This document shows, piece by piece, positions 662 to 49,097 of a stretch of 64,000 nucleotides of DNA (within the stretch, counting starts at the first letter, position 1; each line of letters starts with the position of its first letter). This DNA comes from Mobula hypostoma. Its lineage: Eukaryota. The DNA lies in assembly GCF_963921235.1 (NCBI RefSeq), contig NC_086097.1:177446001-177510000 (forward strand). Reading direction: 5' to 3'. Both the position numbers and the translations under genes were made by a program. Below the pieces are notes generated by a model, which worked only from the letters and a program-made list of their open reading frames with translations, ran no database searches and had not been told where the DNA came from.

Positions 662-788
662 TAGCTCAAAATGTGACTTCATTATATGTTAAATTTAGAA
701 AAATTGACAGCAAAATGTGAAAATAATTGTGGGGGCTGAATTCTTTTCCAAGGCCCTCATAATTTTGTATACCTCTAAGAACTCTTCA

Positions 789-886
789 CTAGTCCTGACG
801 AAGGGTCTTGGCCCGAAACATCGACTGTACTTCTTCCGATAGATGCTGCCTAGCCTGCTGCGTTCACCAGCATTTTATGTGTGTTG
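789..886 (+). mobile_element. Short Penelope-derived insert starting with a minimal hammerhead motif
   Basis: Motif agtc-ctgacga-agggtcttggccc-gaaa-ca-tc-gact at 791-826. TSD ctaagaactcttca (775-788) / ctaagatctcttca (887-900). Confidence 0.8.
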
Positions 887-1029
887 CTAAGATCTCTTCA
901 TTCTCTTGTTTCAAGGAATAAAATACTGACTTAATCAACCTTTCCCTATCATACCAGGGCCTCAAGTCCCAGCAACATCCTTGTAAATCAACAACCTTGT
1001 TGCTGTGCCACAGTTGCTTTGGTAACCAA

Positions 1030-2210
1030 ATGATTGGTCCAAACAATATATTTTGAGGAAGTTTAGGGAGAGGATTCCAGACTTGAAGCAAAGGCAGGGT
1101 TGCCAAGGAGTGGATGTATGTTGGACAGAGATTTAGAACTGGGAACTAGTATGATTAGAGATGTAGAGGGGAGTGAAACCACGGGTTGGCAGTCAGTGGT
1201 GAGCGGTGTGCCACAGGGGTCGGGGCGCTGGTCCTGCAACTGTTCGCAATTTACATTAACGATCTGGATCAGGGGATGAGTGTGAGTGTAGTGTGTGCAA
1301 GTTTGCAAATTGAGTGGAAAAACAAATTGTGCTGAAGATATGATGTGACGTGTGGATGGAGATTCTCTCTGTGTCTGACCCTGGGTGTATCTGATGTGAC
1401 GGGAATCTGCAGAGAGATAGGGATAGGTTAAGTGAGTGGGCAATGGTCTGGCAGCTGGAATGCAATGTTGGTAAATGCAAAGTCATCCACTTTGGAAGGA
1501 AAAATGGAAGATCAGATTATTATTTAAAGGGTAGAGGATTGTAGTATGCTGCTATGCAGAAGGATTTGGGAGTCCTTGTGTAGAAATCATGAAAGGTTGG
1601 TTTGCAGGTGCAGCAGGCTATCAAGAAGGCAAATGGAACGTTGGCCTTCATTGCTAGAGGGATTGAATTTAAGAGCAAGGAGTTTATGCTGCAACTGTGC
1701 AGGGTACTGGTGAGGCCGCACCTGGAGTACTGCTGCAGTTCTGGTCTCCTTACTTGAGGAAGGATATACTGGCTTTGGAGGTGGTGCATAGGACGTTCAC
1801 CAGGTTGATTCCAGAGCTGAAAGGGTTAGAATGTGAGGAGAGATTGAGTCGCCTGGGACTGTACTTGCTGGAATTCAGAAGAATGAGAGATCTTATAGAA
1901 ACACCAAATTTGACAGGGATAGGTAAGTTGGAGGCAGGAAAGTTGTTTCCACAGGGAGGTGAGACTAGAACTAGGGGACATAGCCTCAAGATTCGGGGGA
2001 GTAAATATAAGACAGAGATGAGGAGTGGTGAATCTGTAGAATTCTCTGTCCAGTGAAGCAGTGGACAAGGTTAGATAGATTTTTGCTTAGTGGGAGAATT
2101 GAGGGTTACGGGGAAAAGGCAGGTCGGTGGCCAGATCAGCCATCATCTTGTTGAATGGCGGAGCAGGCTCGACAGGCTGGGTGGGCCACTGCTGCTCCTA
2201 TTTCTTATGT
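1030..2210 (+). mobile_element. CR1 LINE 3' fragment (decayed reverse transcriptase C-terminus and 3' UTR)
   Basis: Remnants SGVPQG, YINDLD, LVRPHLEYC, QFWSPYLRKDILALE and RTRGHSLKI. Typical tail ctgctcctatttcttatgt. Contains stops and frameshifts. Confidence 0.9.
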
Positions 2211-5200: not shown

Positions 5201-6694
5201 CACAGCTAAAATGCAATGGCATCTTTGATTCTTGAAGCCCATGCTGCCTGACCTGTTGAGTTCCAACAGCATTTTGTGTGTGTTGCTCAGATTTCCAGCA
5301 TCTGCAGATTTTTTCTTGTTTGTGACTGAACTAAGGGCATGGGTTTAAGGTGAGTGCTGGAAGCAAATATTATGACACTGTCATTGCGGAGGCTGTTAGA
5401 CACATGAATATGCAGGCAATAGAGAGATTTGGATCATTCACAGGCAGAACTGATTTGGTTTAATTTGGCACCATGGTCAGCATGTGGTGGGTTTGTGCTG
5501 AAAGGCCTTTTTCTGTGCTATACTTTGCTTTGGAATCAGTGTACTGTATCTGGGTTAAGTTGAAATGAGCAATGCCCCTTTACTGCTTGGTAGTGTAGAG
5601 TTGTCTCTGGCAGATTCTTTTGGTTCCTGCTCCTGGATTTCTGTATAGATTCCCGTTCCCTTAGCTAGACGAGTCTAGCCTTCTCAAGACCTTTTATCTC
5701 ATGCAGATGCATTTATCAAACTCCACTCCCCCTCCCCCATCCACATCCCCCTCCTGTCTTTCATCTCCAGCTGGCCACTGTGAAGTGGAATTCGATCTGC
5801 GAGGAATGCCTATATTGGGAAATTTGATAGTTTGTGGAGATGCATTTCAAAGGTGGAGGTGGGGGCCATGTGTCAGATGATGCTGTACCAAGTATTGTTT
5901 GAAGGATATGTGGGGGTGGGGTTGGGTGAAGTGAGGAGTGGGAGAGAAAGAGGAGAATTAGGCTTCCATCTCTTGGTATGAATGGGCTGTTCTGATGCAA
6001 ACAAAGTGGAAACCCCACTGGCTCAGTTCTTTTGTGGAGATCCACTGAAGGATTTCATAATATGCATAACCTTTGACTTGTGCTCCCCCTCCCCCCTCAT
6101 CCACCTCCCTTCGAGAGTACAGGGGAACGGATGACTGAATGTGCAATTGTTTCAGCAGCTTGCCGGGCCCAGGAGAGCTCCCAGTTATTATGAGGGCCCA
6201 GCTTGCAATCCTTGCTGTGTTTTTATAAGGGCAGGTCTTGGGCTGTTCAATTCATTGGTGCTTAATTAGTTGTAACCTTAAACCGCAATGACAGTGAAAG
6301 CTGTAGAGTGGGGAGGAGACAGTAGCATAGCAACCAGACGCGATGTGTTAATTGGTACATTGCCCAACAACAGCCTTTGGGATAGGCAGCCAGGCTCACA
6401 AAAGGATTCAGTTCCAGAGTCTGTTTCAGGACCATCTGACTTGACAGCGAATAGTGTTCTTATTTTTAAGTGTGCGTACTGGTCAGAAAATTGGCTGTAA
6501 GTGTTTGTGCACAAAAAGGCTCCCACAAAGTTGATGGGCTTCAGCTGAGCTGTAGTCCCCGCACAGTCGACTGGCAGACTGGATTAAGAGAGACAGTCTG
6601 ACTGGTGCCAAGTAGTTCTGGGATTTCCTGGCTAATGACCATGTGAAGTCCCGGACTTGCCACCACTTCAAGATCTGGCTGTCTTTAGAAGAAA

Positions 6695-7640: not shown

Positions 7641-7752
7641 TGGACTTGTGATCCTGTAGAGTCAGACAGCGTAGAAGCAGGCCATAAGACCTTATGGTTC
7701 ATTTATTAAGGCATACAACTCTGAAATTCTTCTCCAGATGGCCACGAAACCA

Positions 7753-8240: not shown

Positions 8241-11235
8241 AACTAAGAAAGTACAATCATCAACTCCCCAAAACAGAACAGGCACATCGACCCCCATCAC
8301 ACAAAAAATGAGAAAGATCGGCTGAAAATCACAGAATATTTTTAAAAAACTGAAAAAAAGTGTAGTCCAAGTCCGTATTCAAAATGCAGAAAACCTGGGT
8401 AACATTGTCCGGGTACAGCCGCAAGCCTTTCCCACACTGTAGCAGAGCGATCACACCAGCGATTTAAATGGAAGCTTCAATTGGCGAAATGGGGTCGAAC
8501 ATCGGCTCACACCCCACAGCCTTCTCACCTCGAGGTTCCCGCATGCTATCCCTGTCTCCTGGAATTTCCCTTTGGAAGCTGCAGAGCACTGAAACGCCCA
8601 TACGATCTCCAAACTGCAAATCACAGGCTCCACCGGTTGCAGGATCTATAAGGTGCAGGAGCAGAATTGGGCCATTTGCCCATTGAGTCTGCTCCAACAT
8701 TCGATCATGGCTGATTTATTTTCTCCCCAACACTATTCTCATGCCTTTTCCCCATAATCTTTGACACCCTTTACTAATCAAGAGCTTACCCACCACAGCT
8801 TTAAATGTACCTAAAGACTTGGCCTTCATAGTCATCTGAATTCCATTGTTTCACCACCCTGTAGTTAAGAAAATTCCTCCTCATCTCTGTTCTAAAGGGA
8901 TATCCTTCTATTCTGAGGCTATGCCTTCTAGCCCTAGACACAGAAATGGCCTCCGAAGTACATGATATTTTTATATACCTTTAAGGTCAATTGTAACAGG
9001 TGATTCAATACAGTTTCAATAGTTCTAACAACAGCCCAATTCTTTTGGATTCATAATGCTTCCTTTGAATTGTGTACTTACAGTGGGAGACACCGCTGAA
9101 CGATCAAATACTTTGGCTGCGACATTTCCTTAAACTTATTTACATTTAAAATGGTACAAATTTCTTCAGGCCATAGTTGATGCAGGACAATTCACACAGC
9201 CCCTTGTTTGCACATTGAAATGTCTCATGGTCAGCAGTTTGCAAAAGCCCTTCCCAAGGATCTCAGTCCGAAATGTCAGCTGTGCTTTTTTTCCATAGAT
9301 GCTGCCTGGGCCTGCTGAGTTCCTCCAGCATTTTGTGCGTATGTGTTGCTTGCTTTCCCAGCATCTGCAGATTTTATTTTATTTTCTAGTTTGCAAACTA
9401 TATCTTTTGTCTGTAGGCTTTTAACTTCAATTTACTGCTTGCAATTTAAAAACTGAAGACTAATTGCAAGCTTCCTGAACTTATTTACATTTACAATCAG
9501 AACTGAAGACTGATTCTTGTTCGAATTAATCGCTGCTGTTATTAATATCCACGTAGCTCCAGAATACTCCCTTAACAGCAGCGTCCTCAGTTTCCATGGT
9601 CTTTCCGCCCCCACAAGCATCTTCCAAAAACCCTCAATTCTTTCCCCTTGTTCCTTCGAGAGATCTCTTCCTGTTATAGAGCTTGAGGTGCAGGGTCCAT
9701 TTTGGGTTTCTGTTGTTGATCATCTGGACTTGACGAAAGTAACCAGTACCTCTGGGAGAAGTGCCCTGGGAAAAGATGCTGAAGTTGGTTCATTTGTCTT
9801 TGCAGTGAGTTTAAAGTGAATTCAGATAAAGTGTGAATTTGTACATCAAAGGCAATAGTGAATCTCACCGTCATTTCCATCTTGTGTTGACTCTTGAGGT
9901 AGGGAAGTGGTCCATATTTTCCATGGTCTTGCCATGAACCATTTATCATTGGAAGGCAGTATTCTATAGTGAACATAGAGGACTTTGGTGACACAGGAGA
10001 CTGCAAATGCTCTATTCTGGAGCAAAAAAACTGAGCCAGGCAGCATTTGTGGAAATGGTGGAATCGTTAATACTTTTTGTTCAGACACCAACTATCCCTC
10101 TGCCTTCCCAGATGCTGCCTGATCTGTTGATTCCTCCGGCAGTCTTTTTTTTAAACTGGAGGACCATGGCCTTGTCAATGTAAGGGAGAGTAAGGGTTGA
10201 CTTTAGTACATAAGAACTTTCCAGGCATAGGATATCATATTTCTTGAGGAATTTTTCTTATGAATTGATAATACAGACAGATTAATCCAGGCATTTCAGA
10301 ATGCAAAGGGCTGTAATCTTAGAAATGGAAGGGCAGTCATTCGGAAAACTTTGGAAGCAATTCTGTGAAATCTGGTAGAGGTATGTTACTCTCTCCCACA
10401 AAAGTGGTTATTGGCTCGATAAAATATTGAGTGGAATTAGGGACTGTGAGAACTTGCGTACAGAAACATAGCTTTGATCCATTTAGTCTGTGCCTTCCTG
10501 GTCTTCTGCCTAGTTCCTATCTACCTATACCCAGACCATATCCTTCCAAACCCCTACCATCCGTGTACCTCTCCAAATTTACAATTGAACCTGCATTCAT
10601 TTGCACCAGCCTCTGAGTGAAGAAATTTGCCCTCAGATTCCCCTTAAATATTTCACCTTTCACCCTAAACCTATAACCTGGTCTCACTCAACGTGAGGAG
10701 ACTGAGAACCCTGGAGTGAAGGAGGCTGAGGAGCAATCTTTTGGGTTTTTAATATCACTAGGGGCATGGATAAGTTGGTTAGCCATTCTTTTTTTCCCTG
10801 AGGAGAGATTCTAAAACTAGAGCACATAGGTTTAAGGTGAGAGGACCTGGGGGCGGTTGGTTTCTCACAGAGGGCGGTAGGTGTGTGGAACAAGCTGTCA
10901 GAGGAAGTGGTAGAGGCAGGTAATTAAGAACATTTGGCATTTTGTGGGAGCTCTGAGTGAGACATATGATTCATTGATAGCAACAAGTGAAGTGCTAAAC
11001 ATTGCACTTTCTTTTATTGCTGCTGGGGGAAAAAAAAACCTGAAGATTCTAGACCAGGGACCTAGCTTCTGTGCTAGTTAAGTTCCTGGAGGGGCTTTTG
11101 AGGGATGGGGTAGTCTGTATAGGAAAGGTTTAGAAGGATGTGGGAATCAGATGGAAATCTTGGGCAGAATGGCCAGTTTCCATGCTATTATAACTTTGAT
11201 TCCATGATGGATTCATGGATAAGAAAGGTTTAGAG

Positions 11236-11314
11236 CAGGGATTCCCACACTGGGGTCCACAGACCCTTCGGTTAATTGCAGGAGTCCATGGCATTAAAAG
11301 GTTGGAAATTCCTG
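11236..11314. mobile_element. hAT-type mini-MITE (related copy at about 54737-54802)
   Basis: Termini cagggattccca...ttggaaattcctg with an imperfect 8-bp TSD gtttagag/aattagag. It is inserted in a CR1 3' UTR remnant. Confidence 0.6.
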
Positions 11315-11459
11315 AATTAGAGGGATTTGGACCTGCTGTGGGCAAATGGCGTAGTTAGGCTTCATCGTCTCCATGGACAAGGTCGGCCAAAAAGGCCTGG
11401 TTCTAAGAATGTGAGTTCTTAGATTTAGTTAAAGTATAGCTGGGATTGAGAATTTAATC

Positions 11460-12410
11460 GCTAACGAGAGAAAATCTGCATATGCTGGAAATCCAAGCAG
11501 CACACACAAAATACTGGAGGAATTCAGCAGGCCAGACAACATCACTGGAAAAGAGTGCGGTTGACATTTCAGGCCGAGACCCTTCAGGACTGGAGAAAAA
11601 AAGATGAGAACAACAGGAATTCTGCAGATGCTGGAAATTCAAGCAACACACATAAAAGTTGCTGGTGAACGCAGCAGGCCAGGCAGCATCTCTAGGAAGA
11701 GGTGCAGTCAACGTTTCAGGCCGAGAACCTTCGTCAGAACTAACTGAAGGAAAAAAGATGAGAGGTTAGTTAGGTGGGGGGGGGGAGAAACTGGAGGAGG
11801 GGAATGAAGTAAACAGTTGGGAAGTTGATTTGTGAAAGCGATGCAGGACTGGAGAAGGGGGAACGATGTACAGGAGGCTACACCAGGAGCACTATACACA
11901 GTATATGACCCTAGCAGACTCTCAGGTGAAGTGTTGCTTCACCTGGACGGACTGTTTGGGCCCTGAATGATAGAGAGGGAGGAGGTGTAGGGGTAGGTGT
12001 AGCACTTGTTCCACTTGCAAGGACAAGTGCGAGGAGGGACGAATGGACAAGGGAGTTATGTTGGGAGCGATCCCTGCGGAAAGTAGAAAGTTGGGGGGGG
12101 GCGGATGTGCTTAGTGGTGGGACCCCGCTGGAGATGGCAGAAGTTACTGAGAATTATGTGCTGGACGTGGGTGGTAGGTGAGGACAAGATGGAACCCTTG
12201 TGGGAGGATAGGGTGAGGGCAGATGTGCTCAAGATGGAAGAGATGTGTTTGAAGACACCATTGATGGTGGAAGAAGGGAAGCCTCTTTCTTTGAAGAAGT
12301 ACATGTCCTTCATTCTGGAATGAAAAGCCTCATCCTGGGAGCAGATGCAGTGGAGATGGAGGAATTGAGAAGGGTTTTTTTTACAAGGAAGAGGGTGAAT
12401 AGAGAATTTA
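11460..12410 (-). mobile_element. Penelope-like element, decayed (post-RT region, GIY-YIG start and terminal repeat)
   Basis: The minus strand gives FFKERGFPSSTIN...QHIILSNFCHLQRGPTTKHI and QVKQHFT*ESARVIYCV*CSWCSLLY (degenerate GIY-YIG N-terminus). These are followed by the terminal repeat found throughout the window. Confidence 0.85.
11610..11750 (-). mobile_element. Short hammerhead-headed PLE insert nested in an older PLE
   Basis: TSD aaaaaagatgaga at 11597-11609 and 11751-11763. The minus strand of 11706-11741 reads agtt-ctgacga-aggttctcggcct-gaaa-cg-tt-gact. Confidence 0.75.
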
Positions 12411-14619
12411 TGCCAGTGAGTGTGGCAGTCAGCTGTGGTGATATTGATTGATAGAATGGATGTGTGGGACTGAGTGATATTGCTGCCTACAGAGAGAATG
12501 CAGAACAGTAGAGCACAAGAACAAGCCCTTCAGCCCACAAATTAAACTAGTAATTAAATACATACTCACTGTCCATACACCTCTGTTTCTCAGCACCTTC
12601 ATGGGCCTATCTAAGAGCTTCTTGAATCCCTATTGTATCTGCCTCCACCACTACCCCTGGAAGAACATTCAACATCACTCTTTGTGGGGGGAGGGGTTTT
12701 CCTTTGAATATAAGGCTTATGGACAGGAGAAATTCTGGAGATGTTGGAGATTCTGAGCAACACACACAAAATGCTGGAGGAACAACTCGGCATTCCTTTC
12801 AACTTAGCCCATCTCAATTTAAATGCACACCGGCTCGTACTAGAGCATGTTGTCAGAAATAAGTGAGGGGAATGGGAATGCTGGGATATTCCTGAGCGCA
12901 GGCATGGATTGGATAGGTAGACTGGCCTTGTGCTGAAAGGGAATACGATTATGACCTTGCAAAGAGGAACGGGCGCAAATGTAAAATGCTGAAAACAGGA
13001 TTGCAGCAAGCTACTGAATGAATTTATATATTTGACATTGTTCTCTGTAGGCTTTACTTTCAATTGTTCATACCTACTGTGATTGTTTATACCAACTGTG
13101 CTTCAGCCTGTTCACAAGAGTATGTCACTTAGCCACTGAGGTGTTAATTGTACAACAAAGGATGCATTCAACCCATAGGACCAATGCTATCTCTTGGAGG
13201 TCTAAATTAACCCCACTGAAAATCTTTCTTCGGTCCTTGAAAGCTGCTTTCACTGCTGTCTCTTTTAACAGACCTTGAATCACAACTATGCATTCACAAA
13301 ATGTCATCTCATCCACTCTCCTCGGAGAAGGGCACCATTGAAAGGAGCTAACAAAATTATCTCTCATTTCCCTTGATGATTCATTCTATTAGCTGTAGCA
13401 ATCTTATTTAATTTGTTAGCTTTGATTTTTCTCCGTCTTGATTCCCTCTTCTCTCCCTGCACTATTCTGTCATCCAAACCTGTTCTGCCTTTAACCTGAT
13501 CTCACCACATCCTGGTGGTGATTTCATCCACACGTCCCAGCACCAACATAGCACGCTAGCAATGTTCAGCAGAGCAGAACACAGCCAATGTACAACAAGT
13601 AACAACCAAACAAAGCCCCTCCGCTCGCACATATGCACATCTCCAACCCCAGGGCAGGCTGGCTTGGAGTACTATTTTGATCACCCTGTTGAGGGACAGC
13701 TGGAGGGAGTACGAGGGTGTAGCCAGGACTGGAGAGGCCAAGTTATTGTGCTTGGCTGTCTCAATTCAATTTTCATTCACCAGGAGAATGAGGAGCAACT
13801 TTAGGGGTTTTATAAAATCACGAGGAACACCAATAAGGTGGACGGCAAGTCTACAAGAGGGTATGGGAGACCAAAGCTAGGGGCATAGATTTAAGTTGAG
13901 GGGAAAGAGTCAAAATGGACCTAAGGGAAGCTTTTCACGCAGAAGGTGGATAGTATATGAACGAGCTGCCAGAGAAAGTGATTGAGGCAGATATAATACA
14001 TCAGTTAAGCAGCACTTGGAGGGGGGCTTGGAAAGGTATGAGCCAAATGCTGCCGGGTGGACACATGGACTGTTTGGGTTGAAGGGCCTATATCTATGCT
14101 GTATTGCTCTGGCTATGACTACAGTGGAAATACTGACATTTTTTCCAATTTATTGGTTCTTGGGACGGTCCCATCCTTAATGGATCTTGAACTGAATGGT
14201 ATGCAAGATACAATTTTCAGAGAACTTTTGAGAATAACTTTGCTGTGGTCTGGAGATCCATACAGGCCAGACTGGCTGACAATGTCACTGAATTTTAAGA
14301 TTTGATTAGAAACTTGAATTGAAATCTTGAGCTGTTTCTTTGGAAATTAGATTTATACATAGAGTTGCACAAGTTGGAAGCAGGTCCTTTGGCCCAATTG
14401 GCCCATGCTGACCAGGATTCCATTGTTAGTCCCATTTGATAGCATCTGGCCTCTATTTCTCTCAGTCTTTTTGATTTTAAAAGAAGTTTAATACATATTC
14501 CTTGGGTTATCAGCCCAAGCCACTGGATAAAAGACCAGTAACTTAACTGCAACGTTACCTATCCCATTTCAGTATCGTTGATTTCACCAGCTCTTGGTCA
14601 GAATGCCAGTAATTATGGT

Positions 14620-17672: not shown

Positions 17673-18132
17673 TCAGAATTCACCTCACCTGTTTTTTAAC
17701 AAACAACTCCTCACTCACTCTGGAGACACGAGACATTAGATGCTGGAATCTGCTGGAGGAACTCAGTGGGCTGAGCTGCATCCAATGCAGTGTTCAAATT
17801 TAAAATGTAATTCCCTTTTCTCCCCACAGTTGCTGCTTGACCCTGCTGAGTTCCTCCACCAGTTTATTGCTCTTTACTCAAACTCAACATGCCTGTCTAT
17901 GGGTGTAATAAATCTTCTCCAAGTTGCTTTCCAGTGCTTTAAAAGGATGAGTGCTGTGATGGTACTCCAGATGAGGTTGGCCCATTCCTGGTATATTTTT
18001 GTTCCAGATCCCAGCATCTGACAAACATCTGCAGTTTAAAAATACTTTGCTATTGCTCTGGACAGTCCAGAGATCCGAAAAGTACTATAAAATGTCAGCT
18101 GATCTGCTGTCTTTAACCCCGCTTGCATGTGT

Positions 18133-21620: not shown

Positions 21621-21799
21621 AGAGACTCCGCTAGTACCTACCCCAGCTCTGACAATCTTAAAGAACCTTAAGGGCATGTCCTCTAGTACTTGTCGTGCCT
21701 TAGGTAAACAAGTTTGTGGATGAATTGGCCTCAGTACATTGCCCCTATTGTATAGGCTCATGATAGAATCTGAGGGGAGTAGGTTAGCATTTGGGGAGA

Positions 21800-23489: not shown

Positions 23490-23647
23490 CAGAGTTCTCC
23501 CTAAGGTCCTGGCCAATATTTATCCCTACATCAACATCACAAAAGCAGGTTATTGGGTTACTAATGCAGAGTTCTCCCCAAGGTCCTGGCCAATATTTAT
23601 CCCTACATCAACATCACAGAAGCAGGTTATTGGGTTACTAATGCAGA
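23490..23647. repeat. Tandem duplication, 2 x 77 bp
   Basis: The unit cagagttctccc...gggttactaatg starts at 23490 and again at 23567, with 2 mismatches. Confidence 0.92.
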
Positions 23648-30200: not shown

Positions 30201-31591
30201 TGAGTGGGGGGGTTGGGGTCTGAGACCAGAGGGCACACCACAGAATAATGTCGATTTTGAACAAATGAGCAGAAATTTCTTTTGCCAGAGGGTGGCGAGT
30301 TTGTGGAATTTGTTGCCATTAGCAGCTGTGAAGGCCAGGCCACTGGGTATATTTAAGGTGGAGGTTGATAGTCGGGATGTTAAAGGTTACAGGGAGAAGA
30401 CAGAACATTGGGGTTGAGAGGGAAATGAATCAGCCATCCGTGATCAATTGCTGGTGCAGACTCAATGGACTGTATGGTCTAATTCCCCTCCTATGTCTTA
30501 TGGACATAAGGTTTTATGGACTATTTTGAAAGATTGTATTGAGAATGATAAACAGTTTGAATGCTTGCTGTTGCACGCAGAAGTCGGATGATTCTCACAA
30601 GGAAACTCTTGTGTGCTTTTTGAAACTAATAAAGTTCATTGAGGTCTCAAATGCTTCATTCGGTAATCAACTCAAGTATATTAGGCATGACATTGTGAAT
30701 ATTTCAGACAAATAAGCAAAGTTTAATGGAATCAATATTCAGTTGCAAGGAAATGTTAATCTTATCAAAGCCTCCACATCTCTCTGCAAGTTAACCATAT
30801 TTAAGTGCAACAATGGCCATCACGACCTTTTCGAATTTCTGAGCCTTTGAGTTGGAAGAGAAAAAAGAATACCAAATGATCTTCAAGTATAGTGTCCCCA
30901 TCTAGGTGAAATGCATGAAGATATGGCAGAGCGATTTCAGGATCCTCTCACCCCAAGTTCCAGATTGGGTAATAAATCCATTCCTGAACACTTGTAATGA
31001 GGAATTACAGGAAGGATGGAGGAAGAACTGATCTCACTATAAAATGACATTTGAATTGAAGCTGAGGTTCTGAAAAAATCTTATCAAGACTTTTGGTTGC
31101 AGAAAAATATCTCTGCCGGTTATCCTGTACTGTGGAAAAAGGTCAAGATGTTCTTTATTGCTTTTCCGACATCATATTTAGTGGAGCACAGTTTCAGTGT
31201 TTCAGAGTCTCTTTCAAAGCAACGAAACAGACTGCAAATTAGTGAACGTGGGGATCTGAGACTCCTGAGTGATATTCAGTCTGATCTTGAGAAGCTGATA
31301 ATCACTGCACCAAGCCCATCCATCTCATTGAATGGTGAATAGTATGCTCTAAAATTGATGAAAGTTGTTTTTTCTGTAATTAAATGGAAGAACTAATTTT
31401 ATTTGTAGATTTAAATGATGTTTGCAATATGTGTCACTGCTTTGAATTTGCAGTTCCTATTTTCTTTCATCATGCACTGTAAATCAATCCGTCATTGTTT
31501 TTATATAATGGCCATAAAGGGAGAGGGAGATACTGGGGGTGTGGTCTGGGAATCAAAGGGGCCATAACCCAAAGAAGTTTGAGAACCACTG
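27235..31591 (+). mobile_element. hAT (Charlie/Buster-type) transposon with a decayed transposase, interrupted by CR1
   Basis: TIRs cagtgtttctcaaa...tttgagaaccactg and 8-bp TSD ctctagac/ctctaggc. Remnants include LLLHAEVG (LxHxEVRW-like) near 30565 and FWLQKN...YPVLWKKVKMFFIAFPTSYLVEHSFS...SKQRNRLQI (hAT dimerisation domain). Confidence 0.9.
28146..30520 (+). mobile_element. CR1 LINE (endonuclease and RT remnants) nested in the hAT element
   Basis: Endonuclease remnants YDIVGMSESWL and MGDFN. RT remnant FGPLLFTLYVNDL...KFADDTKIGG. Tail cctatgtcttatgg. Confidence 0.9.
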
Positions 31592-34500
31592 CTCTAGGCT
31601 GAAAGTTACACAAGCCTTTTGGCCAATTGAGACCATATGGACCATCACACATCAATTGATGCTCATCTTGCCATTTTATTCTCAGCAAATGCCATGAACT
31701 GTTTTGATACTCAGCTAAGCAATTTCCAGTGATTCATTTACCTGCCCGCCAGCATTTCTGTGGGACGTAGGGGAAAACCAGCCACAAGTGTGGTGAAAAG
31801 CAGGGCGGAGGCTGAATGGGATGTGAGCAACAAGGGATGGTCTAGAGGCTGCATAAGTTTCTGCAGATGCTCAAACTCTTGGGCAACACAGGTGCTTCAG
31901 GACCTCCGCAGGTCTGGCAGTGTCGAGGACAGTTTTGGGTTGAGACCCTTAAACGGGACTGGAAGGAAGGTAGGGGCAAGGGTTTGAACAAGAGCTGGTG
32001 GGTAATAGATTGATCCATGCGGGGGGGGGGCGGATGTGTAGGGTAGGAGGAGGTGAAAGAGAGAGGGTGATGGTATATTCAGGAAGAAAAAGGATCAGAG
32101 GAGTGTGATTACTAGAAATTGGAGGAAAAGATGTTCATATTGTCAGGATGGAGACTGCACAAACAGATACGAGGTACTGGCCCTCTAATGTGCATCTAGC
32201 ATCAACTCAGCAAAGGAGGCGGCTTTGGACAGACATCAGTGAGGCACTGGGAAGTGGAATTAAACTAGCCAGTAGGGGTGGGGGGGGAGAAGAGCAAAGG
32301 TACTCAGCACAGTGGTCTGTTTACCTGAAGTTAGTCTAAAATGTGCCCAGACCTTTCTGGTTTTACCCTGTGTGGTTGTGTGCGAAAGCTTGCATCAACC
32401 TTGGGGAGACCCATCAATCTCTTCCCTTCTCTCCTCTCTCTCCCCCCCCCCCACCTTCCACTGAGCAGGTATCCTGATTTGTTATTCCATTTCTGACTGA
32501 GATGCTTAGCCTTGGCCCTCTACAGCTGAACTTGGAGTTATCGCCAGTCATTCAGCCAGTCCCTTTAGCATCTGCTCTCATCTAAAATTTTAATACTTTG
32601 CCATTTGAACACCTTTCTTACAATAAAATCGCAGTAGATTCAGGCATAGAAAGCTGGTGGGAGCTTGGGCTTTATAAACACAGGCAGGAAGCACCAAAGG
32701 AGGGCAGGTATGATTAACCTCTGTGAAAGGGATGGGGGCAATGGTTACCAGAAGTTAGAAGATGGGAAAACGTTCATGCTGTCAGGTTGGAAACTGAAGT
32801 GGAATATGAGGTGTTGTTCTAGTCTTCATCTAGCCTCAACTCAACTCAGTAATGGAAGAAGCTTTATGTCTCATGGAATCCGGTGCAGTGGTAATCGCTG
32901 CCCACAGCTCCAGAGACCTGGGTTTAGTACTGACCAGGCAATGTTTGTGTGGTGTTTGGCTTGTATTGTGGCCTGAAGAAGGGTCTTGGCCCCAAAACAG
33001 TGACTGCTTTATTCCCCTCCCCAGATGCTGCCTGACTTGCTGAGTTCTTCCAGCATCTTGTGTGTGTCACTCAAGATTACCAACATCTGCGGAATATTTT
33101 GTGTTGGTCACTTTCCTGTCCAGGTGGATGGGGAGGGGGGTGGGAGGAGTGAATAGAGCTGGCTCTGGCTCTCTACTGCCACTTCCCTCCGTCGATGCTA
33201 CCTAATCCGCTGTGTTCCTGCAGCTCCTTTGTGTGTTGCTGAAGAACTGTTGGTTATGTGAGAGAGTTGCGTATATGGAAAGGAGGAAGGGGACCAATGG
33301 GATTGGTTGGCATGGATTCTGTGGCCTCCTGTATTAATATCAGTGTGGGTTTCAATCTTTGTATCCCACGTGCTTGCTAAAATCAAATTTACTCTGAAAG
33401 ATTTGACATCCAGTTGCTATAGAGTGTCCTCCTCCTCCACAATAGACCTTTGATTAACAGCAGTGTTTAGCACAGTCTCCTGTTCCTTGTGGCAGCTGCA
33501 ACAGATTTGTTTAGTCAACTTTTGCCAAGACAGCTTTAGTTCTTGTACAGCTACTGGATGTCACTCCCACCTCTCTCCTCTAATTAGAATCTTCCCCATT
33601 CCACATTTTTGTTAAATGATTCTCAGGAGTAAGAGCTGATAACATTGACAGCTGAGTCAATGGCAATGGGAAAAAAAAATTGTATCCCATGGTTGTGTAG
33701 ATGACATTTATCTACTTTAATAATAAATTTACTTTGGGAGACTTAAATCTGGAAGGCAAATCAGCAGCTGACTTTGAGCTCTCATGGTTAGTATCCAGAA
33801 AATAGGCCAAACGGACCCCTCTCTCTGCTGTGACTAAATGTACTTGAGCCCCTGTAAAATCAGGAAGGGTGTGGATAGTTGAATGCGCACTGTCTTTTTG
33901 CCCAGGGTTGGGGAATCAGGAACTGGAGGGATTAAATTGGAGCCTGAGGGGCAACTGTTTCACCCAGAGGATGATCAGTATGTAGAATGAGGTCCTGGGG
34001 AAGCGGTTGAGACAGCTACATTAACAACATTGAAATGGCACTTGGGCAGTTAGATGGATAAGAAAGACTTAGATGGGAAAGGACCAAATGCAGGGAAATG
34101 GGACAGGCTTAGATGGGATTCTTGGTCGCATTGATCAGTTGGGCCAAGGGGCCTGTTTCTGTGCTGTGACCCCATAACTATAGTTCCTGCTTCCTGGATC
34201 TGCTGTCAAATACATCTGAAGAGATATCAGTATGAGCAAGTGATTTATTGGAGGAACTCTGCGTCAAGCAGCATCTATGAGGGAGGCGCAGAGAAACCGT
34301 TACTGTTTGGGGTTGGAATCGTGCACCAGGACTGGTTTCAAGCTGAAATGTCGACAATTTGTTTGCCTCCTTATAGATTCTGCTGCACTGGCTGAGTTAA
34401 TATCTTTCACCAGTGAAAGTTTGTTGCTTCAGATTCCAGCATCTGTAAAAGTTCAAAGGTTCATTATGCAGAATACAAGTCTGAGATTTGTCTTTTCCAG

Positions 34501-36289
34501 ATAGTCATAAAATACAGAAAGCCATAAAAGTAGTTGAAAGCCATCAATAAAAAGAGTAAGTAGAAGACATAGAAAAAACTAAAAATGTTTGACTATCCAG
34601 GAGATGTCGCCCAAGGAATCGTTCACTGGTGCCATCTTGACCAGAATTTGAGCCCAGCCGACAGGAATGTGCATTGCGGTAGTATCTTGTGATTAGGTTA
34701 CTGGACTCAAATCCAAGGTTTGAGTAACCCAGAGGAAAGAGTTTATAATGACATTTTAAAAAAACACTACTACCGCATTGACATCTCATTCAGAAAGCCT
34801 AAGTCACAATAATGTGGACAGTAATGTTGAAGTTTGTCAGCCAGTTTGTATACAGGCTCCCACAGCCACAAGGTATAATGGGTGAATGGCCTCTTCCCAT
34901 GGTGTAAATGTCCTGAGCTTGCCCACAGCCTAGCACTCCCAACCCTACCTTTTGAAGTGTGTTTATACTGTTATAGAGAAGGCAATTTTAATGGTATAGT
35001 AGTGGAGGAATTGTCTTGACTGACCTCTGTTCCTTAATAAAATGGCTGCAAAGACCTTTTGTCCATTTGTGGCCTCTGTTTAACTTTTGTTCCAGAAGGC
35101 AGCTCCTTAGACGGTGCGTTATTCCCTCATTGCCACAATGGCAGAGTTGATTGTGCGCCAGGGTTTAAACACGATCAGGAGAGGTATTCTGTTTCCCTGT
35201 GGAAGTATCCAGAAGGGCAGAAACACTGATCTGTGCAATACTTAAAAATTACTGAAGTTACATTTATATGTGAGTAGTAAGCTCTGAGGTCTGTGTTCCT
35301 GCAGACCTGCACTAGCGATCATCCTGGATTTCCATTGCTCCACCATTGATAACCATGTCTTTGGCTGCCTGCTCCCGAACTTTTATACACTCCCTGCCTT
35401 CTGGGACGTGTATTAATGAATGTGGACAAATTCACAGATAGGTTTGAAATTATGAAAATATAGATAAGGTGGACAGTGGGGGTAGGGGAATCCAAAAATA
35501 GGCAGCATAGATTTGGGGCGAGGGAGAAAGACTTAAAAGGGACCTCAGTGGCAACTTTTTCATTCAGATGGTGATGAGTGTATGGAACGAGCTGCCAGAG
35601 GAAGTGGTGGAGGCAGATACAATAATATTGTTTATTTAAATACAGGAACTTGGGACTAGTTGGATGGGCACTTTGGTCAGCTTTGATTGGTTGGGCCAAA
35701 GGGTCTGTATCTGCTGTTTTCTTTGTTGGGGATTATTCTAGAGTTATGAAATTATAGGTGGCAATGAATTAAAACGAGAACCAGTGTTCAGGAAAAAATA
35801 AAAACACCACACACACAATGCTGGAGGAACAGCAGTCCAGTTAGCTTCTATGGGAAGAAAAGTACAGCTGATGTTTTGGGCTGACACCCTTAAGGCTGAG
35901 TTATACTTGTGCGTACAGTCAGCGAAGTTTTGACAGGATTTCAGCCCGATATGTCAACTGTACTTTTTTTCCATAGACGCTGCCTGGCCTGGTATGTGTT
36001 ACACGGATTTCCAGCATTTGCAGATTTTCTGTTGTTTGAGAAGTCAGAGTAAGAAGGTGGGGGGAGGGGCTTCAGGCAATAAAGCCTGTTCTCAATTTAC
36101 TTAATTGTTAAGGCTATTGAAACCAATCACTAGGACGTTTGATCTATCCCATTGAAACTGGTTTGATCCATTCCATTGAAACTATGTAGAGAAAGATAAT
36201 AGATGAATTTTCATGTTAATTGTTGTTCATTGAAACTTTCAGGAAGAGATCAGGAAGGGCATTAATCAGTCATTTCCTGTATTAGCACA

Positions 36290-36466
36290 TTATCACAGAG
36301 GGTAAAAGGAGGAGAGGATGATGGAGGCTACGATGGATGGATAATACATATACAATGCGTATGACCTTGGGGGATCTTAGAGAGGCAGCTTCCAACAAGA
36401 AGGCTTGGTATACATGAGTCCGTGAGGTCACGAAGAGTCGGACTTGACTTAACAACTGAACAACAA
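36290..36466 (+). mobile_element. RTE-clade (BovB-like) LINE 3' end
   Basis: Remnant EGKRRRG*WRLRWMDN followed by gtcacgaagagtcggacttgacttaacaactgaacaacaa, which resembles RTE/BovB 3' termini. Confidence 0.7.
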
Positions 36467-38187
36467 AGGTTTATCTTTGTTAATGCACAGTCAGTTTTGA
36501 TGCTTTATATTTTGGCTGGTTGTATATTCAGGGCATCATCCCTCAGCACTAATAACGGGGGTCTGTGTTCCATGTCTGGAGTTTGTGCCCAGAAGCTTTC
36601 AGACCAGCTAGTGGTATTGAATATTCAAAGTGGTTTTGCTAGTTGGGATGAGTATCTAGAGGAGTCACCTGGCCTCGTGCACATGCTCCACAGTTTATGG
36701 CCAAATGGCCTTATTCTGCGTCTGATCTCTAATAAGATTAATGGCTGGTCGACTTCAATGCCATTTTCCTGGCTTTCTGCTCGTATCCCTAGACTCTAAC
36801 ATCCTAAAATCTTTATAGAGTCATGGTCAATGCAGCCTGGAAAGAGGCCATTTGGCCCACTTATCCATGACAGACAATCTGTTTTAATCCCACCCTGAAG
36901 AACTCGGGCTCTTGCACTCCATGCCAAGATAATTAGTGTGGATCCAGGAAGTTAATAACTGCAGTCACCACTCTGGGTGATAAAGCACCCCCCCCCAATC
37001 TTCTCTAAATCTCTTCCCCCTTATTCTAAATCTATGCCATTTATTTACTTTCATCTTCTACTATTGGGGAAAGGTTTCTAGCAGTATTATCACACACACA
37101 ACATCCGGTCCTGATAAAGGGATAAAGGCCAGAAATGTCAACTGTCCATTTCCCTTCAGGCTGGAGGCCTGTGACTTGTGGGGCACTACAGGGATCGGTG
37201 CTGGGTCCGTTGTTGTTTGTCAACGATATTAATAACTTGGATGATGATGTGATAAACTGGATGAGGAAATTTGGAATAAACCCAAGATTGGGGCAGGAGC
37301 TGAAACTTTGTTCCTTGGGACATAGCTGACTTTAGGGAATTGTATAAAATCATGAGCAGATTAGATAAGGTGAATGCACTTTTTCCCAACACAAGAGAAT
37401 GAAGGGCTGTAGGGAATGGGTTTACAGAGAGATTTTAAATGGACCCTGTGGGGCAACATTTTGGTGTTGAGGGTGGGCTAGAGAATGGGCTAGAAATGGT
37501 ACATTAAACAACTTCTGAATGTCACTTGGATAGGTACATGGATAGGAATGGGTTAAAGGTCAAATACAGACAAACGGGACTAACTTGGATGGGCGTCTTG
37601 GTCAGCATGGGTGTTGGGCTGAAGGGCCAGTTTCTGCGCTGTTAATCTGACGGTCTTGCAATGCTCCTTGAAGCAGCCACATGATTAATGACACTTTACA
37701 AATGTAGTTCTGCTGAGCTCTTGGCACAGAGGAAGAACTGAATGGAGCTCTCCTGTCTGGATTTGACCTTCTGCACCTGTCCTGCTGAGTGTTTGCAGAG
37801 TTTGCTGTTCAGATTGCAGGTCTCTTGCTTTAACAGAGTTTTGCTTTTGTTATAGTCTGTACTGTGCCAGGTGTTACATATGTTCTTGGCCCCTGTGGTG
37901 GATGGCAATGGTTGCACACTTGTTGGCTCTGAATGAACCAGTCAGGAATGTCTCCACTCAGAAGGTGAGATCTGATCGTAAATGTCTGGTGAGTTGTATT
38001 GTGCCCGACCAAACTCATGGATAGAGGTATTGATGTGAATATACCATAGAACATGGAATAGAACTGCACAAGAGAGGACCTTCAGCCTATGATGTTGTGC
38101 TGATCTTCAAACCTATTTAATATCAGATATAACCCTTTCTTCCCAAAACTCTTCATTTTTCTTTCATCCATGTACTTATATAAGAGT

Positions 38188-38340
38188 AACACACATCAAA
38201 GTTGCTGGTGAATGCAGCAGGCCAGGCAGCATCTCTAGGAAGAGGTACAGTCGACGTTTCAGGCCGAGACCCTTCGTTAGGACTAACCAGCAACTTTGTG
38301 TGTTGCTTGAATTTCCAGCATCTGCAGAATTCCTGATGTT
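38188..38340. mobile_element. Short PLE insert with an inverted hammerhead-bearing part
   Basis: TSD tacttatataagagt (38173-38187) / tacctatataagagt (38341-38355). 38188-38286 is in minus orientation (motif at 38249-38284, core ctaacga). The remainder is the element tail in plus orientation. Confidence 0.82.
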
Positions 38341-38499
38341 TACCTATATAAGAGTCTGTTAATTCTCCCTCATATATTTGCTCTAAAATCTCATGGTCAT
38401 AGTATGGTTTGAGGGGATGGAAAAGTACTCTGTGCCCAAGATTGAGCCAAACAGCACTGACACATTCCCTGGGCCCGACCGGTCCTCGCTGACAAAAGA

Positions 38500-43767: not shown

Positions 43768-45072
43768 CAGGTTTCCCCCGCCATCCGAAGGTAGAGCATT
43801 CCTATGAAACGGTTGCCTGCACAGATCTCCATAGCAAAAATCTTCTTTGGCATAAACACGCTCTCCAGTAACCTTTAAGCTATGAGGCTGCCAAATCATA
43901 CCAAATAACGCGTAAAAATACACAGCCTATATAAAGTAGACGTAATGTATGTACAGTGTAGTATCACTTACCGGAATCGGGAAGACAGCTTGCCGAGCAC
44001 ACTGATGGTATGTTAGACTGAGTCGTCTCAGGTTGGGTGGTGCAGTGACCCCCACCCTCCAGGCCGCTGACCCGATACATTGCCGTGAAGAACGTAGCAG
44101 TAGCCGGGAGGCACACAGCACATCTTTAAGAAAAAAGCCGAAATAAACATGCTAATTAATTAGGTGCCGCTGACACGTAATTGTCAGCCCAGATCAGTGC
44201 CGATTTCTGATTGCATCACCTCTGATCTGGGCCGACAATTACCTGTCGGCAGCACCTAATTAATTAGCTTGTTTATTTCGGCTTTTTTCTTTAAAGATGT
44301 ACTTGTGCCTCCCGGCTACCATTGCATTCTCCGTGAATCGGTACAGTATCTGTCCGGGGCCCAGGGTTTGGGGTGGTGGAACACGGGGGTGTCATCTCAT
44401 CATCGATCAGGGCAGGCAGCTCATCTTCTCCTATGACTGCCCACCTCGATGTAGAGATCGAGGTTCATCGCCTGCTGTGGCTGATGTGGAAGGCTTGCTT
44501 GACTGCTGAGCCTCGCGCATTTTTCTATCATACAGTTGTTTGTAAGGACTCAAACCATCCTGCAAATATTCCCTAAGCCTATGTACCCTTTCAAAATTAA
44601 AGTTGTACTTTATCATTGCAGTGAAAATCTCACGCAATTGCTTCACGTTCAGTTCGCTACTGCGTTCGGTTTCGATTGTTAGCTTTTCCTCTTCCAATGG
44701 CATCAGCTCTTCATCTGTCAGTTCTTGGTCATGGGATGCCAAAACCTCTTCAACATCATCGTTGTCAGCTTCCACAAGCCAAACTCACTTTGTCCTTGCT
44801 TCGTTCACCATGATTGAAACACTTAATTATATCTAGTTTTACGCTAAGTGTAACACCCTTACAAGCTCTTTTAGTCTTTTCCGATACCTTAGAACTCATC
44901 TTGCTAACGGCTGCTCACAGGCACGTGTTTAAGCAATGCCGTTCCGAATCCGGGGGAGAGCGGCTGCTTGGGGCTTTTTATCGCGCGCTGCCTTTCTTCG
45001 TAACAGTGAAAACACCTTCTGAAAGTGAGAAGAGGGTACTAAAGCGAATGTTCGAAAAGCGGGGGACACCTG
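43768..45072 (-). mobile_element. Tigger/pogo transposon deletion derivative
   Basis: TA TSDs at 43766-43767 and 45073-45074. TIRs caggtttcccccgc / gcgggggacacctg. The minus ORF 44431-44775 (DDVEEVLASHDQELTDEELMPLEEE...PYKQLY) resembles the acidic C-terminus of Tigger transposase. Confidence 0.88.
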
Positions 45073-46496
45073 TATTAATTCATGAGAAAGGGTTAAGCAT
45101 GGTTGGTAGGTGAAGGTGGATTGAGGTGAGAATGGTGATAGGTTGATGGAAGAGGAGAGTAGATATAATGAGAGGCTGGGATAAGGGAGGCGGGCAGGGC
45201 AAATGGGAAAATTGGAGGAGGAGTGGTGATGGACAGACAGTGGGTGCAGGAGGAGTCAGGATCAGGGTGATGGGGCTGGGGTAGGTATGGGAGGGGAAAT
45301 GAGTAGATTGAGAGGAGAGAGGAAAGGGACGGGGGGGGCGGGAGCAGATTCCCTCAAGTTGGAGAATTCAATAGTCATGCCATTGGGTTACAGACTACTC
45401 AGGTGGAATATGAAGGATCTGAAAAGTTGGCTGTCACAGATGTTGCCTGACCTTGCTGAGTTCCTCCAGCAGATTTGAGTATTCCTCCTTATCTCAATTC
45501 TAAAGGTTCAGCCTGTCTCCTGAGGCTGTCCCCTCTGGTCCTAGACTCTCCTAATAATGGAAGCATCTTCTCCATGTCCACTCTATCTAGGCTCTTCATG
45601 ATTCGGTAGGTTTTAATGAGATCCGCAATTCTCCTACTAAAATCCAATGAGTACAGGCCCAAAGCTGTCAAAAGCTCCTCATATGTTGACCCTTTCATTT
45701 TCTTTGTTCATTTATTATTGTCACAAGTACTAAGATACAGTGAAAAGCTTCTGTTTGAATTCATCTGTGTAGATCATTCCAAAACATCAGTACACTGAGG
45801 TAGCTCAGGGGAAAAGCAATAACAATGCAGGATATGGTGTTGCAGTTACAGAGGAAGTGTAAGGACCACAGCAAGATAGTTTGAGAGATCCAGAGTTGAT
45901 CTTTATTGTATGAGTTGTAACAGTGGGATAGAAGATATCCCTGAGCTTGGTGGTATATGTTGTCGCACATTTTTCTCTTCTAAGGGGAGTATTGAATGAT
46001 AGTTCCTGGAGTGGAATTATTTATATTCTTTAAAATGTACTCAAACAATTACAAGGACCAAAGATCTTTGAGCAGAATTAGGGCAGCAGGCTGTTCAAAC
46101 TTGCCTCCATGTTCAGGATGAACTCCTGACTCGAGCAGTGCTGTGCTCCATGTGAAATGTAACAAAAGAACATGTTTAGAAAAACTTGATAGGCCATGTA
46201 GCATCTGTGGAGAGAGAAAAACAGTCAAGACATCCATCAGCAGAAAAAAAACAAACTGCTGGAGGAATTCAGAGGCTCAGGCAAGATCTCCAGAGGAAAA
46301 TGGACAGTCGACTTTTCAGATGAAGTTCCAGAGTATCAGCCCAAAATATCAATTATCTATCTGCCTGACCTGCTGAGTTCCTCCAGCAACTTCCTTCTGT
46401 TCCAAATTCCAGCATCTTGTAGTTGGCTTTAACGTCAAGAAACTACAGAGAGTTGTGGACACAATTAGTTCGTCTCGGAAAACAAGTATAGACCCT

Positions 46497-46530
46497 GTCC
46501 TGACGAAGGGTCTTGGCCTGAAACGTCGAC
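46497..46530 (+). ncRNA. Minimal type I hammerhead ribozyme motif with an intact core
   Basis: gtc-CTGACGA-agggtcttggcct-GAAA-cg-TC-gac. Stem I is GUC/GAC, stem II is GGGU/GCCU, helix III is the palindrome ACGU and the cleavage triplet is GUC. Activity is not shown. Confidence 0.7.
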
Positions 46531-46596
46531 TGCACCTCTTCCTACAGATGCTGCCTGGCTTGTTGCGTTTACCAGCAACTTTGATGTGTGTTGCTC
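46500..46596 (+). mobile_element. Short hammerhead-headed PLE insert inside a Rex/Babar-like remnant
   Basis: TSD atagaccctgtc (46488-46499) / atagactctgtc (46597-46608). Confidence 0.8.
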
Positions 46597-49097
46597 ATAG
46601 ACTCTGTCTAAATTTCTTGCTGCCTCAGTAAAGTAGCCAGCATAACCAAAGATCCCACCCACCCAGATATTCTCTCTTCTCATCCCTTGGGCAGAACATA
46701 TAAAACCTTGAAAACACTTTATCACCAGGCTCAAAGACTGCTTTTAACCCACTTGGAAGAATATTGAATGGATCTCTCATAAGATACAAAAGACTTGAGA
46801 GGGAACTTCTTTACTCAGAGAGTGGTGGCTGTGTGGAACGAGCTTCCAGCAGAAGTGGTTGAGGCAGGTTCGATGTTGTCGTTTAAAGTTAAATTGGATA
46901 GATATATGGACAGGAAAGGAATGGATGGTCATGGGCCGAGTGCAGATCAGTGGGACTAGGTGAGAGTAAAAGTTAGGCACGGACTAGAGGGGCCGGAAGG
47001 CCTGTTTGCGTGCTGTAATGGTTATATGCTTACCACAATTTATCTTGTTTTGAACTTGCGCCTTACTGTCTACTTGTAATGTACTTTCTCTATAACTGTA
47101 ACACTTTATTCTGAATTCTGTTATTGTTTTTTCTTGGACTACCTCAATACACAGTTGTAATTAATTTATCTCTATGGATCGTATGCAAGACAAGTTTTTC
47201 ACTGTGCCTTGGTACATGTGACAATAATAAACCAGTTTACCAATTTCTCTAGAGGTAGACGGGTTCTTGATAAGCAAAAGGGGTAAAGGTTTATTGCAGG
47301 AAGGTAGACATGCAATCTGCCAGAATTTTATTGAATGCCGGAGCACACTCAGGCTGAATGGCCTACAGTTAGCTCTAATTTGTTTGTTCATACTTAAAGT
47401 TGAACACATCAAGACTGAGTTCAGGCACTAGGCAGATGGCTAGAGTTTAAATCGAGCAGATTAGCTGTGATGTGGCAGAGTGATGGTACTGATTCAAAGG
47501 GCCTAATAGCCTGGGCCTTCATCTTGGTGTGTGATGTTTCTTTGTGAAGCAGCAGTCTCTGATCAATAACCCTTGCGAGTTGTCTACTGCCCATCCTCCT
47601 TCCGTGCAGAGGTCGTGCCAGGGGATTTGAGAGGCTTCAGCTCAACAAAAGAGGCGAATGAGTCAGCAGGATAAGCTCTTTGTCTGCGTTTACTCAGTCT
47701 GTTGGCCAGCGGGTTTGTTTTTGTGAAGTGTACCTATGCGCTGTCCATGCGATTCCCCCTCAACAATTTTCATCAGGAATTGCTTGCCATTTATATTTTT
47801 AAAAAATGAGAAAAAGAAGCTGCAAATTTGAGGCTTTGTACATGGTTTCTGCATGCGGTTATGAGGCAGACATCTAACAAAGAGATTCATTTACTCCCTA
47901 AATTCCAGCCTGCAAATGCTCTTTATTGCTTTTTGAATCATAGTTTTCTCCCTTAGTCTCCCTCCCCCCTTGTATCTACACCCGCACTTGCCTCCTGCAC
48001 GCCTCCCCCCACTCTCCCTCTGCCTCCTCTCCCCTTTCTCTGTTCCCCACTCTCTCTCCTGTATGAGAGATCCCTGTCTTGCCTCCAGTCTTTCTTTGGC
48101 TGGTTTTGTCCCGCTTGTTACTATACTGCCAAGGCTTTTGTTGTTCTGGCAACACAATGCAAGATGCTGAAGAAAAATCAGACTGCCCATGGTTTCTTAA
48201 TTTTTGTCTAATTAACAAAACCAGAGCTGATTATGATTCAATTAAGCCATTCTCCAATAGAAACACAGGCCAGTGCGTTTAATTGCAAGCTTTAGCAATG
48301 TGCAGTGAAGTACATCAAATGACAGGTTAAGCTTTGCATTTACATAGGGCCGTTCACAACCCGAGAATGCCCACAGCATTGTGGAGCTGAGCTGCAGATC
48401 CTAGTCACAGCTGGATGTGACAGAGTCCTGTAGTAACTCAGACAATATGCTGTAGAGTTTAAACATTAAATCTCTTCGTTAAGATTCCTTCTGTACATGA
48501 ACCAGCGTGCAAATTATCTATGGTTTGTTTATTTAAAGATAAGAGCGCAGTAACAAGCCCATGCTGTCCAACAACACCGATGGACCCATTAACCTACTAT
48601 TATTTGGAATCTTGGGGGAACCAATGTAAACCCAAGTGGTCACGGGGAGAACGTACAAACACTTTACAGATAGTGGTAGGAATGGAACTCAAATTTTGGG
48701 CTCTGTAGTAGCTACCTTACCGTACCTCGTTTCTTGTAGCTACCTCAGGTTATTGAAATTCCAGTGCAATTTCATAGCCCTGGGTAATTATGATCTAAGC
48801 TTTGTGCGGCCTTTGTAGTGAAGAATTCAAGCAAAGTTAATATGTTGTGCTGAGCCAGACCGTTATCTGCCCTCAGCTACAGCGTCCACTTAGCTGCTTT
48901 GTAGAGTGTGTCTTTGATCATCGCCTTTGCGCAGACTGTTCTTGCTTCGTTGTGTAAGCAACTCCTGCTGTGATGGAGTTTTCAGAGATTCTTTGGCTCC
49001 AGCTCCTGCCTCATCCCAACTGCTACTGGTGATCCACTGGTGGCAGTCATGTCTCAGAGCCCAGAGATCCGCACGTAGTTGGTCTGTCTTAAGACAT

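Follow-up and report, generated by a model that had tools for sequence, protein, structure and literature searches.

Within a 64,000-nucleotide window of the ray Mobula hypostoma (contig NC_086097.1, positions 177,446,001 to 177,510,000), four short inserts, designated A to D, were found to be 97–153 bp long and to correspond to the last part of a Neptune-type Penelope-like element (PLE): a minimal hammerhead ribozyme motif followed by a 3′ end at either of two sites. Each is enclosed by its own target-site duplication (TSD). Our analysis suggests that they are probably short by-products of ordinary transposition by an endonuclease-bearing (EN+) Neptune-type PLE, with a preferred 5′ stop.

Four hammerhead-bearing inserts and their target sites

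Positions within the element are numbered so that 0 is the first base of the hammerhead core, which places the predicted cut between +27 and +28. The inserts and their boundaries are as follows:

775..788 (+): left TSD of insert A (14 bp), within an older LINE-like repeat
789..886 (+): insert A, beginning at the hammerhead front (-5/-6) and ending at the first 3′ end (+91); its subfamily is sister to that of B–D
790..827 (+): putative minimal type I hammerhead of insert A, with helix I at 790–794/823–827, the core from 795, the predicted cut between 822 and 823, and a mutated palindromic helix III position
887..900 (+): right TSD of insert A
11463..11609 (-): hammerhead relic and tail forming the 3′ end of the older PLE copy hit by insert B, including the TSD copy at 11597–11609
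11610..11750 (-): insert B, from -10/-13 through the hammerhead (core at 11737) to the second 3′ end (+127, tail included)
11751..11763 (-): second, exact TSD copy of insert B (13 bp), where the older element has its polypyrimidine tract
38173..38187 (+): left TSD of insert C (15 bp), within an older repeat
38188..38285 (-): arm 1 of insert C, from the hammerhead front (-5/-7; core at 38280, with a G-to-A change in the core) to the first 3′ end (+92)
38286..38340 (+): arm 2 of insert C, an inverted tail piece from about +70 to +128, head to head with arm 1
38341..38355 (+): right TSD of insert C
46488..46499 (+): left TSD of insert D (12 bp), the last three bases of which also fit helix I
46500..46596 (+): insert D, from the core at 46500 to the first 3′ end (+96), with the core letters intact
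46597..46608 (+): right TSD of insert D

All four inserts, at 789–886, 11610–11750, 38188–38340 and 46500–46596, lie where an initial annotation of the window had placed them and share the variant ctgc(g/a)tt(c/t)accagca that it had pointed out; two motif searches found this variant confined to them, with extra matches at 30580 and 1793 that lack the surrounding unit. The direct repeats of 12–15 bp, with at most one mismatch each, that it had described were likewise confirmed: 14 bp with one mismatch for A, 13 bp exact (or 16 bp with one mismatch) for B, 15 bp with one for C and 12 bp with one for D. When random intervals were searched within ±8 nt of the element ends, none (0/1500) had a flanking repeat of at least 12 bp; in a loose search of 70 × 70 nt, the repeat score of D was equalled by 15/300 controls and that of C by 1/300. 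Targets rebuilt with a single TSD copy gave junction-spanning alignments to older paralogous repeats of the window for A (three places), B (one) and C (one), and no paralogue across the junction of D was found within the window. TSDs above chance, together with the paralogous targets of A, B and C, indicate that all four are true insertions with target-site duplications. The AT content of the TSDs was 69%, versus 56% for the window, as measured on 54 bp of TSD only.

Relative to the core, the hammerhead-bearing part begins at -5/-6 in A, -10/-13 in B, -5/-7 in C and 0/-3 in D, with 2–5 nt of junction microhomology in the young copies. The proposal that each insert begins near stem I of the hammerhead therefore stands for every hammerhead-bearing part (0 to -13) but not for the whole of insert C, which begins with an inverted tail arm: C consists of two arms head to head, its hammerhead start being the inner junction and its outer end on the motif strand being the 55-bp tail arm. 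The two-armed structure of C resembles L1 twin priming. Nor are the four uniform: A belongs to another subfamily than B–D, and the 3′ ends differ. A differs from B–D at 16–17 of 95–97 columns, versus 7–9 differences among B, C and D, with blastn identities of 87% and 90–92%, respectively; the 3′ ends fall into two groups, +91/+92/+96 and +127/+128, which lie 31–37 nt apart.

The motif was assigned by hand from the core letters and helices. In the majority sequence of the four, it comprises helix I, a core of CUGANGA...GAAA, one unpaired base, helix II, a palindromic helix III stub and a cleavage triplet, and by the features given in PMC4209133 it would be a minimal type I hammerhead. D keeps all core letters, and A, B and C are each altered at a core, stub or cleavage-triplet position. 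Across nine copies 83% of helix cells are paired, with no compensatory changes (no better than shuffles); no unit folded clearly more stably than shuffled sequences (z from +1.18 to -1.63), and Rfam gave no hammerhead family match to the motif at any threshold.

The source family and its older copies

The target of insert B was an older PLE copy, 77% identical to it, whose pyrimidine tract it entered 13 nt ahead of the hammerhead. This older copy runs upstream into an ORF (open reading frame) remnant that matches ray proteins with reverse transcriptase (RT), cysteine linker and GIY-YIG. The loci of the family outside the four inserts that bear on the argument are:

9236..9397 (+): insert of like build carrying the old variant (9246–9387, starting at about -4 and ending at the tail), with an exact 10-bp TSD at 9236–9245/9388–9397
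11853..12535 (-): decayed PLE ORF remnant with RT thumb, cysteine linker and start of GIY-YIG (tblastn E 5e-42)
54023..54547: older two-armed insertion with an exact 13-bp TSD (54023–54035/54535–54547), with a long terminal-repeat arm (-) and a short arm at 54438–54534 (+)

The hammerhead-tail segment also ends this ORF-bearing remnant; the PLE origin proposed at the outset is supported, and so is target-primed insertion. Among named proteins, the closest are those of two rays, Mobula hypostoma and Hypanus sabinus. Full-length relatives carry RVT_1 and GIY-YIG domains and a CX2-5CxxC linker; the linker is present in P0005, in 10 other relatives listed with it and in P0002, and its last cysteine is changed in the window remnant. 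This linker is given for the Neptune and Nematis clades (PMC8557442), suggesting that the family is an EN+ PLE of Neptune/Nematis type, an assignment made by linker and domains rather than by tree. A profile search found 40 family pieces in the 64 kb.

Outside the window, a young-type copy was found in the protein model P0004 (Mobula hypostoma STARD3 N-terminal-like isoform X3), running from about -13 to the first 3′ end at amino-acid resolution. The C-terminal part of P0004 is a translated young-type unit, through either exonisation or mis-annotation. No ORF start at the hammerhead was found: tblastn of 154 proteins placed only this mis-annotated model on the units. A scan of viral contigs for the pattern returned no further copies; the single match in metagenome contigs, an exact one of 21 bases (L001, 3001–3021), was rejected as chance, lying in DNA of 63% GC without the surrounding unit.

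The TSD of the 9236–9397 insert reached a score seen in 1/400 controls, and when 19 older copies or pairs were searched for TSDs, two gave clear cases, this one (9255) and the insertion at 54 kb, the rest lying within the control range. Besides the 54-kb case, the TSD was undetectable in five older pairs tried; no TSD could be detected for short, older PLE pairs lying head to head at 17738–17870, 34249–34460, 35802–36041 and 46249–46417. The tight head-to-head pairs at 34.3, 35.9, 38.3, 46.3 and 54.4 kb each consist of one arm without and one arm with the tail, and insert C represents the smallest version of such a two-armed insertion. In addition, a PLE ORF-end fragment occurs twice on the minus strand, about 640 bp apart (32128–32226 and 32767–32865), beside a plus-strand short unit at 32972.

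Contigs from four of 24 listed sequencing runs (X5, X12, X15 and X16) were compared with positions 11000–12600 of the window. Among the rows listed, loose ends with mixed AT-rich continuation piled up at the tail end, at 11463 in all four runs, at 11609/11615 in X5 and at 11615 in X16, and at the inner site at 11496 or 11501 in X12, X15 and X16, 33–38 nt from the tail-end pile in three runs. Two 3′ ends bounding an optional tail of 30–40 bp are thus seen both in the inserts and in the loose-end piles. Contig joints that skip part of insert B stem from paralogues; no listed contig bridges insert B, and those of X12, X15 and X16, which leave the unique flank bins uncovered, speak neither for its presence nor for its absence; no empty allele was seen. 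Summed contig depth at the diagnostic place 11666, divided by that at the old tail (11500), came to 11.6 in X5, 4.7 in X12, 4.8 in X16 and 0.014 in X15; these ratios do not give copy number, and the last of them indicates that the young variant is nearly absent in one relative. The closest relative among the runs showed 15 differences in 787 bp over two contigs near B. B, C and D depart from their own majority sequence by 2–3 differences at 91–93 places. The TSDs of the four inserts carry three mismatches in 54 bp, compared with this divergence of 15/787, so the inserts are probably older than the split from this relative, and the initial description of them as recently mobile holds only in relative terms.

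That annotation had further read the inserts as a discrete non-coding ribozyme-bearing unit. Such a unit would be a short RNA of about 110–145 nt starting at the hammerhead front, expressed from short master loci and mobilised in trans by a PLE protein. All five young-type copies seen are short and start within 13 nt of the core, the variant is lineage-restricted by the contig depth ratios, and non-autonomous PLE derivatives exist (MRC1, PMC8557442; retrozyme monomers, bioRxiv 10.64898/2026.07.22.740005). However, both ends are variable, A and B–D are separate subfamilies, the 9236–9397 copy shows the same build with the old variant, and at 54023–54547 a short arm shares one TSD with a long terminal-repeat arm; the lineage restriction would be explained equally well by subfamily turnover. 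Full-length copies of a SINE (short interspersed element) would share a defined 5′ end; among the four copies here, starts spread over 13 nt. We observed no A or B boxes of RNA polymerase III (Pol III) in any of the four inserts on either strand, no tRNA head on the units and no tRNA in the window. Nor does the window hold a tandem array with at least two complete hammerhead units, insert B beside the older copy being a later insertion. We therefore consider a discrete unit unlikely.

A probable preferred 5′ stop at the hammerhead front

Of 43 profile hits, 29 older copies were kept (E ≤ 0.01, reaching +40) after five young pieces and nine weak or upstream-only hits had been dropped. Seven of these extend well upstream, ten stop at -11 to +9, and twelve stop at +13 to +63; hence 10/17 older copies holding the core stop at its front, and all four young copies stop 0–13 nt before it. 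Downstream of the front, stops amount to 0.91 per 100 nt at risk; at the front the figure is 2.85, and upstream of it 0.17 (descriptive p 0.009 and 1.5e-5). The second option of the initial annotation, a preferred stop near the ribozyme, gains support from both sets of copies. As the front stop is also seen in older subfamilies, the pile appears to belong to the PLE lineage, across several of its subfamilies, rather than to one young unit.

A simpler account would dispense with any special stop, attributing the cluster to heavy ordinary 5′ truncation, to small numbers and microhomology, and to what alignment can resolve in a divergent, pyrimidine-rich upstream region. The 12 of 29 older copies that start downstream of +12, the microhomology that leaves the starts of A, B and D ambiguous, and a lack of any 5′ pile among the loose-end rows listed fit this account. 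However, it is a TSD or an inner junction, not alignment, that fixes the boundaries of A, C, D and 9246–9387, the stop rate falls from 2.85 to 0.17 per 100 nt past the front, and nine of the ten front-class copies have an upstream pyrimidine fraction of 0.30–0.57, versus 0.70–0.87 in several long copies. We regard this account as quite unlikely.

Alternatively, the ribozyme itself might set the boundary, the template being defined by self-cleavage or, as in retrozymes, by a circular monomer. In a single case, the older 97-bp arm at 54438, the start lies about 2 nt or less from the predicted cut, and several old starts fall at +18 to +36. Cleavage would, however, start copies at +28, whereas the four inserts retain the whole motif, starting 27–40 nt upstream of the predicted cut and ending 64–100 nt downstream of it, which argues that the boundary is not the cut of the ribozyme. 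The absence of a tandem array in the window, the alterations at core or cleavage-triplet positions in three of the four motifs, and the uncleaved RNA that serves as template for PAc (Poseidon of Anolis carolinensis; PMC11167929) also speak against this explanation, which we judge very improbable.

Under the preferred reading, that of a by-product of ordinary PLE transposition, the GIY-YIG domain would, as expected from the known enzyme class, cut AT-rich DNA with a stagger of 10–16 nt. The RT would then initiate inside the RNA at two sites 31–37 nt apart, giving 3′ ends at about +92 and +128; the footprint of this step is seen here, and its mechanism would be that of PAc (PMC11167929). Copying would pass the uncleaved hammerhead, beyond the cut site at +27, as the extent of the inserts demonstrates, and would stop 0–13 nt before the core, where the product may be joined to the other target end, often via 2–5 nt of microhomology. 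Priming at both target ends would yield head-to-head, two-armed insertions such as C and 54023–54547.

As the cause of the stop, we favour run-off at the template's 5′ end. The main alternative, a roadblock formed by a protein or by structure at the polypyrimidine-CAG signal beside helix I, is a serious contender if not the expected one; a mere preference for microhomology seems somewhat unlikely. In copies that retain the upstream region, a pyrimidine tract is present, with CAG beside helix I in 7/8 listed. A pyrimidine tract followed by CAG resembles an initiator-like start or a splice acceptor. A spliced template was considered but gains no support: some bases upstream of the nearer AG are retained in A, B and C, both AGs are present in B, and no shared first exon is seen.

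Several observations weigh against the preferred by-product reading. The young variant is known from short copies alone (4/4 in the window, and P0004), none of which continues into a long terminal repeat or an ORF; at the rate of the older copies (10/29), the probability that all four young copies would be short is 0.014. No young variant on an ORF-bearing copy was found in the window, and the protein searches gave the one short copy in P0004 and nothing else; in public mobulid assemblies, the variant may follow a full terminal repeat and GIY-YIG end. The older-copy stop statistic uses local alignment ends, which lose ends, a model built from the seven long copies of the same set and bins set after the data had been seen. 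No loose-end pile was observed at the hammerhead front among the 24 rows listed (with 4336 more rows, four runs), which gives no backing to a sharp genome-wide 5′ boundary, and any RNA start site at the ribozyme front is putative.

Known systems, window setting and implications

The inserts share with the products of EN+ PLEs, which include 5′-truncated copies, inverted arms and an optional tail of 30–40 bp (PMC8557442, PMC3846280, PMC2377424), the 5′ truncation, head-to-head arms within one TSD, the tail on one arm, 5′ microhomology and insertion into another copy. They differ in TSD length, which is 10–16 bp here versus 8–10 bp in rotifer examples, and in the 5′ pile at the hammerhead front, which is absent from the available portions of the published accounts. 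In PAc, the two internal sites at which the RT initiates bound the 30–40 bp tail; the template is uncleaved RNA, and both strands of an AT-rich target are used; insertion is unaffected by hammerhead mutants, and a shorter template 5′ end leads to a shorter product (PMC11167929). The ray family agrees with PAc in having two internal start sites about 30–40 nt apart downstream of the hammerhead, extension of both strands, AT-rich targets and an uncleaved template; insert B has landed in the terminal repeat of its own family, a target named for PAc (PMC11167929). However, PAc belongs to the Penelope/Poseidon clade, whereas the ray family has the cysteine linker of Neptune/Nematis.

The minimal type I motif, the unpaired base before helix II and the palindromic helix III stub are shared with the solo minimal hammerheads of PLEs (PMC4209133), although the available part of that account gives no cartilaginous fish, insertion boundaries or TSDs. 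Metazoan PLE hammerheads are described there as mostly single and dispersed, "probably related to truncated PLEs". Non-LTR retrozymes are likewise non-coding, carry a type I hammerhead, derive from PLE terminal repeats and include dispersed monomers (bioRxiv 10.64898/2026.07.22.740005; PMC7761336), but they are defined by tandem units with at least two complete hammerheads and by circular RNA, whereas the units here are single, with ends set by RT start sites, and none of the four is bounded by cleavage sites. The retrozyme survey included one chondrichthyan genome (bioRxiv 10.64898/2026.07.22.740005). In Drosophila virilis, a promoter lies within the PLE terminal repeat (PMC2377424) and the PLE intron ends at helix I (PMC4209133). 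In a literature search that lay outside Repbase, Dfam and subscription journals, neither this ray family nor a piling-up of 5′ ends at the hammerhead front was found described, and the available part of the mobulid genome preprint (10.64898/2026.10.27.761883) makes no mention of Penelope.

The surrounding window has a GC content of 41–47%. A cadherin prodomain exon lies at 56734–57093 (+) (Pfam Cadherin_pro, E 1.7e-17). A 62-bp near-perfect palindrome at 44179–44240, a sub-threshold Rfam match, is found about 200 bp from the frame 44431–44784 (-), which we take to resemble the end of a pogo/Tigger transposase and which has no Pfam match. A 77-bp tandem duplication of two copies with a 97% match occupies 23490–23647.

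In summary, the family itself is of little weight, since truncated PLE tails with minimal hammerheads have already been described. The inserts provide clean, TSD-bounded vertebrate copies from a clade other than that of the element studied in vitro, with the same two internal start sites, an uncleaved template and, in addition, a preferred 5′ stop. Their interest is mechanistic, bearing on how PLEs form inverted arms and on what the PLE hammerhead does in vivo. As a tentative and rather doubtful extension, the insert starts may mark where a PLE RNA has its 5′ end, at the ribozyme front, with the protein priming at the internal start sites about 100–140 nt away and running off; in this lineage, the short product might even propagate itself. 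If true, each transposition-competent transcript would also yield mini-inserts headed by a hammerhead as well as the short inverted arms found in longer insertions, which would account for the way inverted arms and tails are arranged in PLEs, and genome data alone could locate the start of the PLE RNA.

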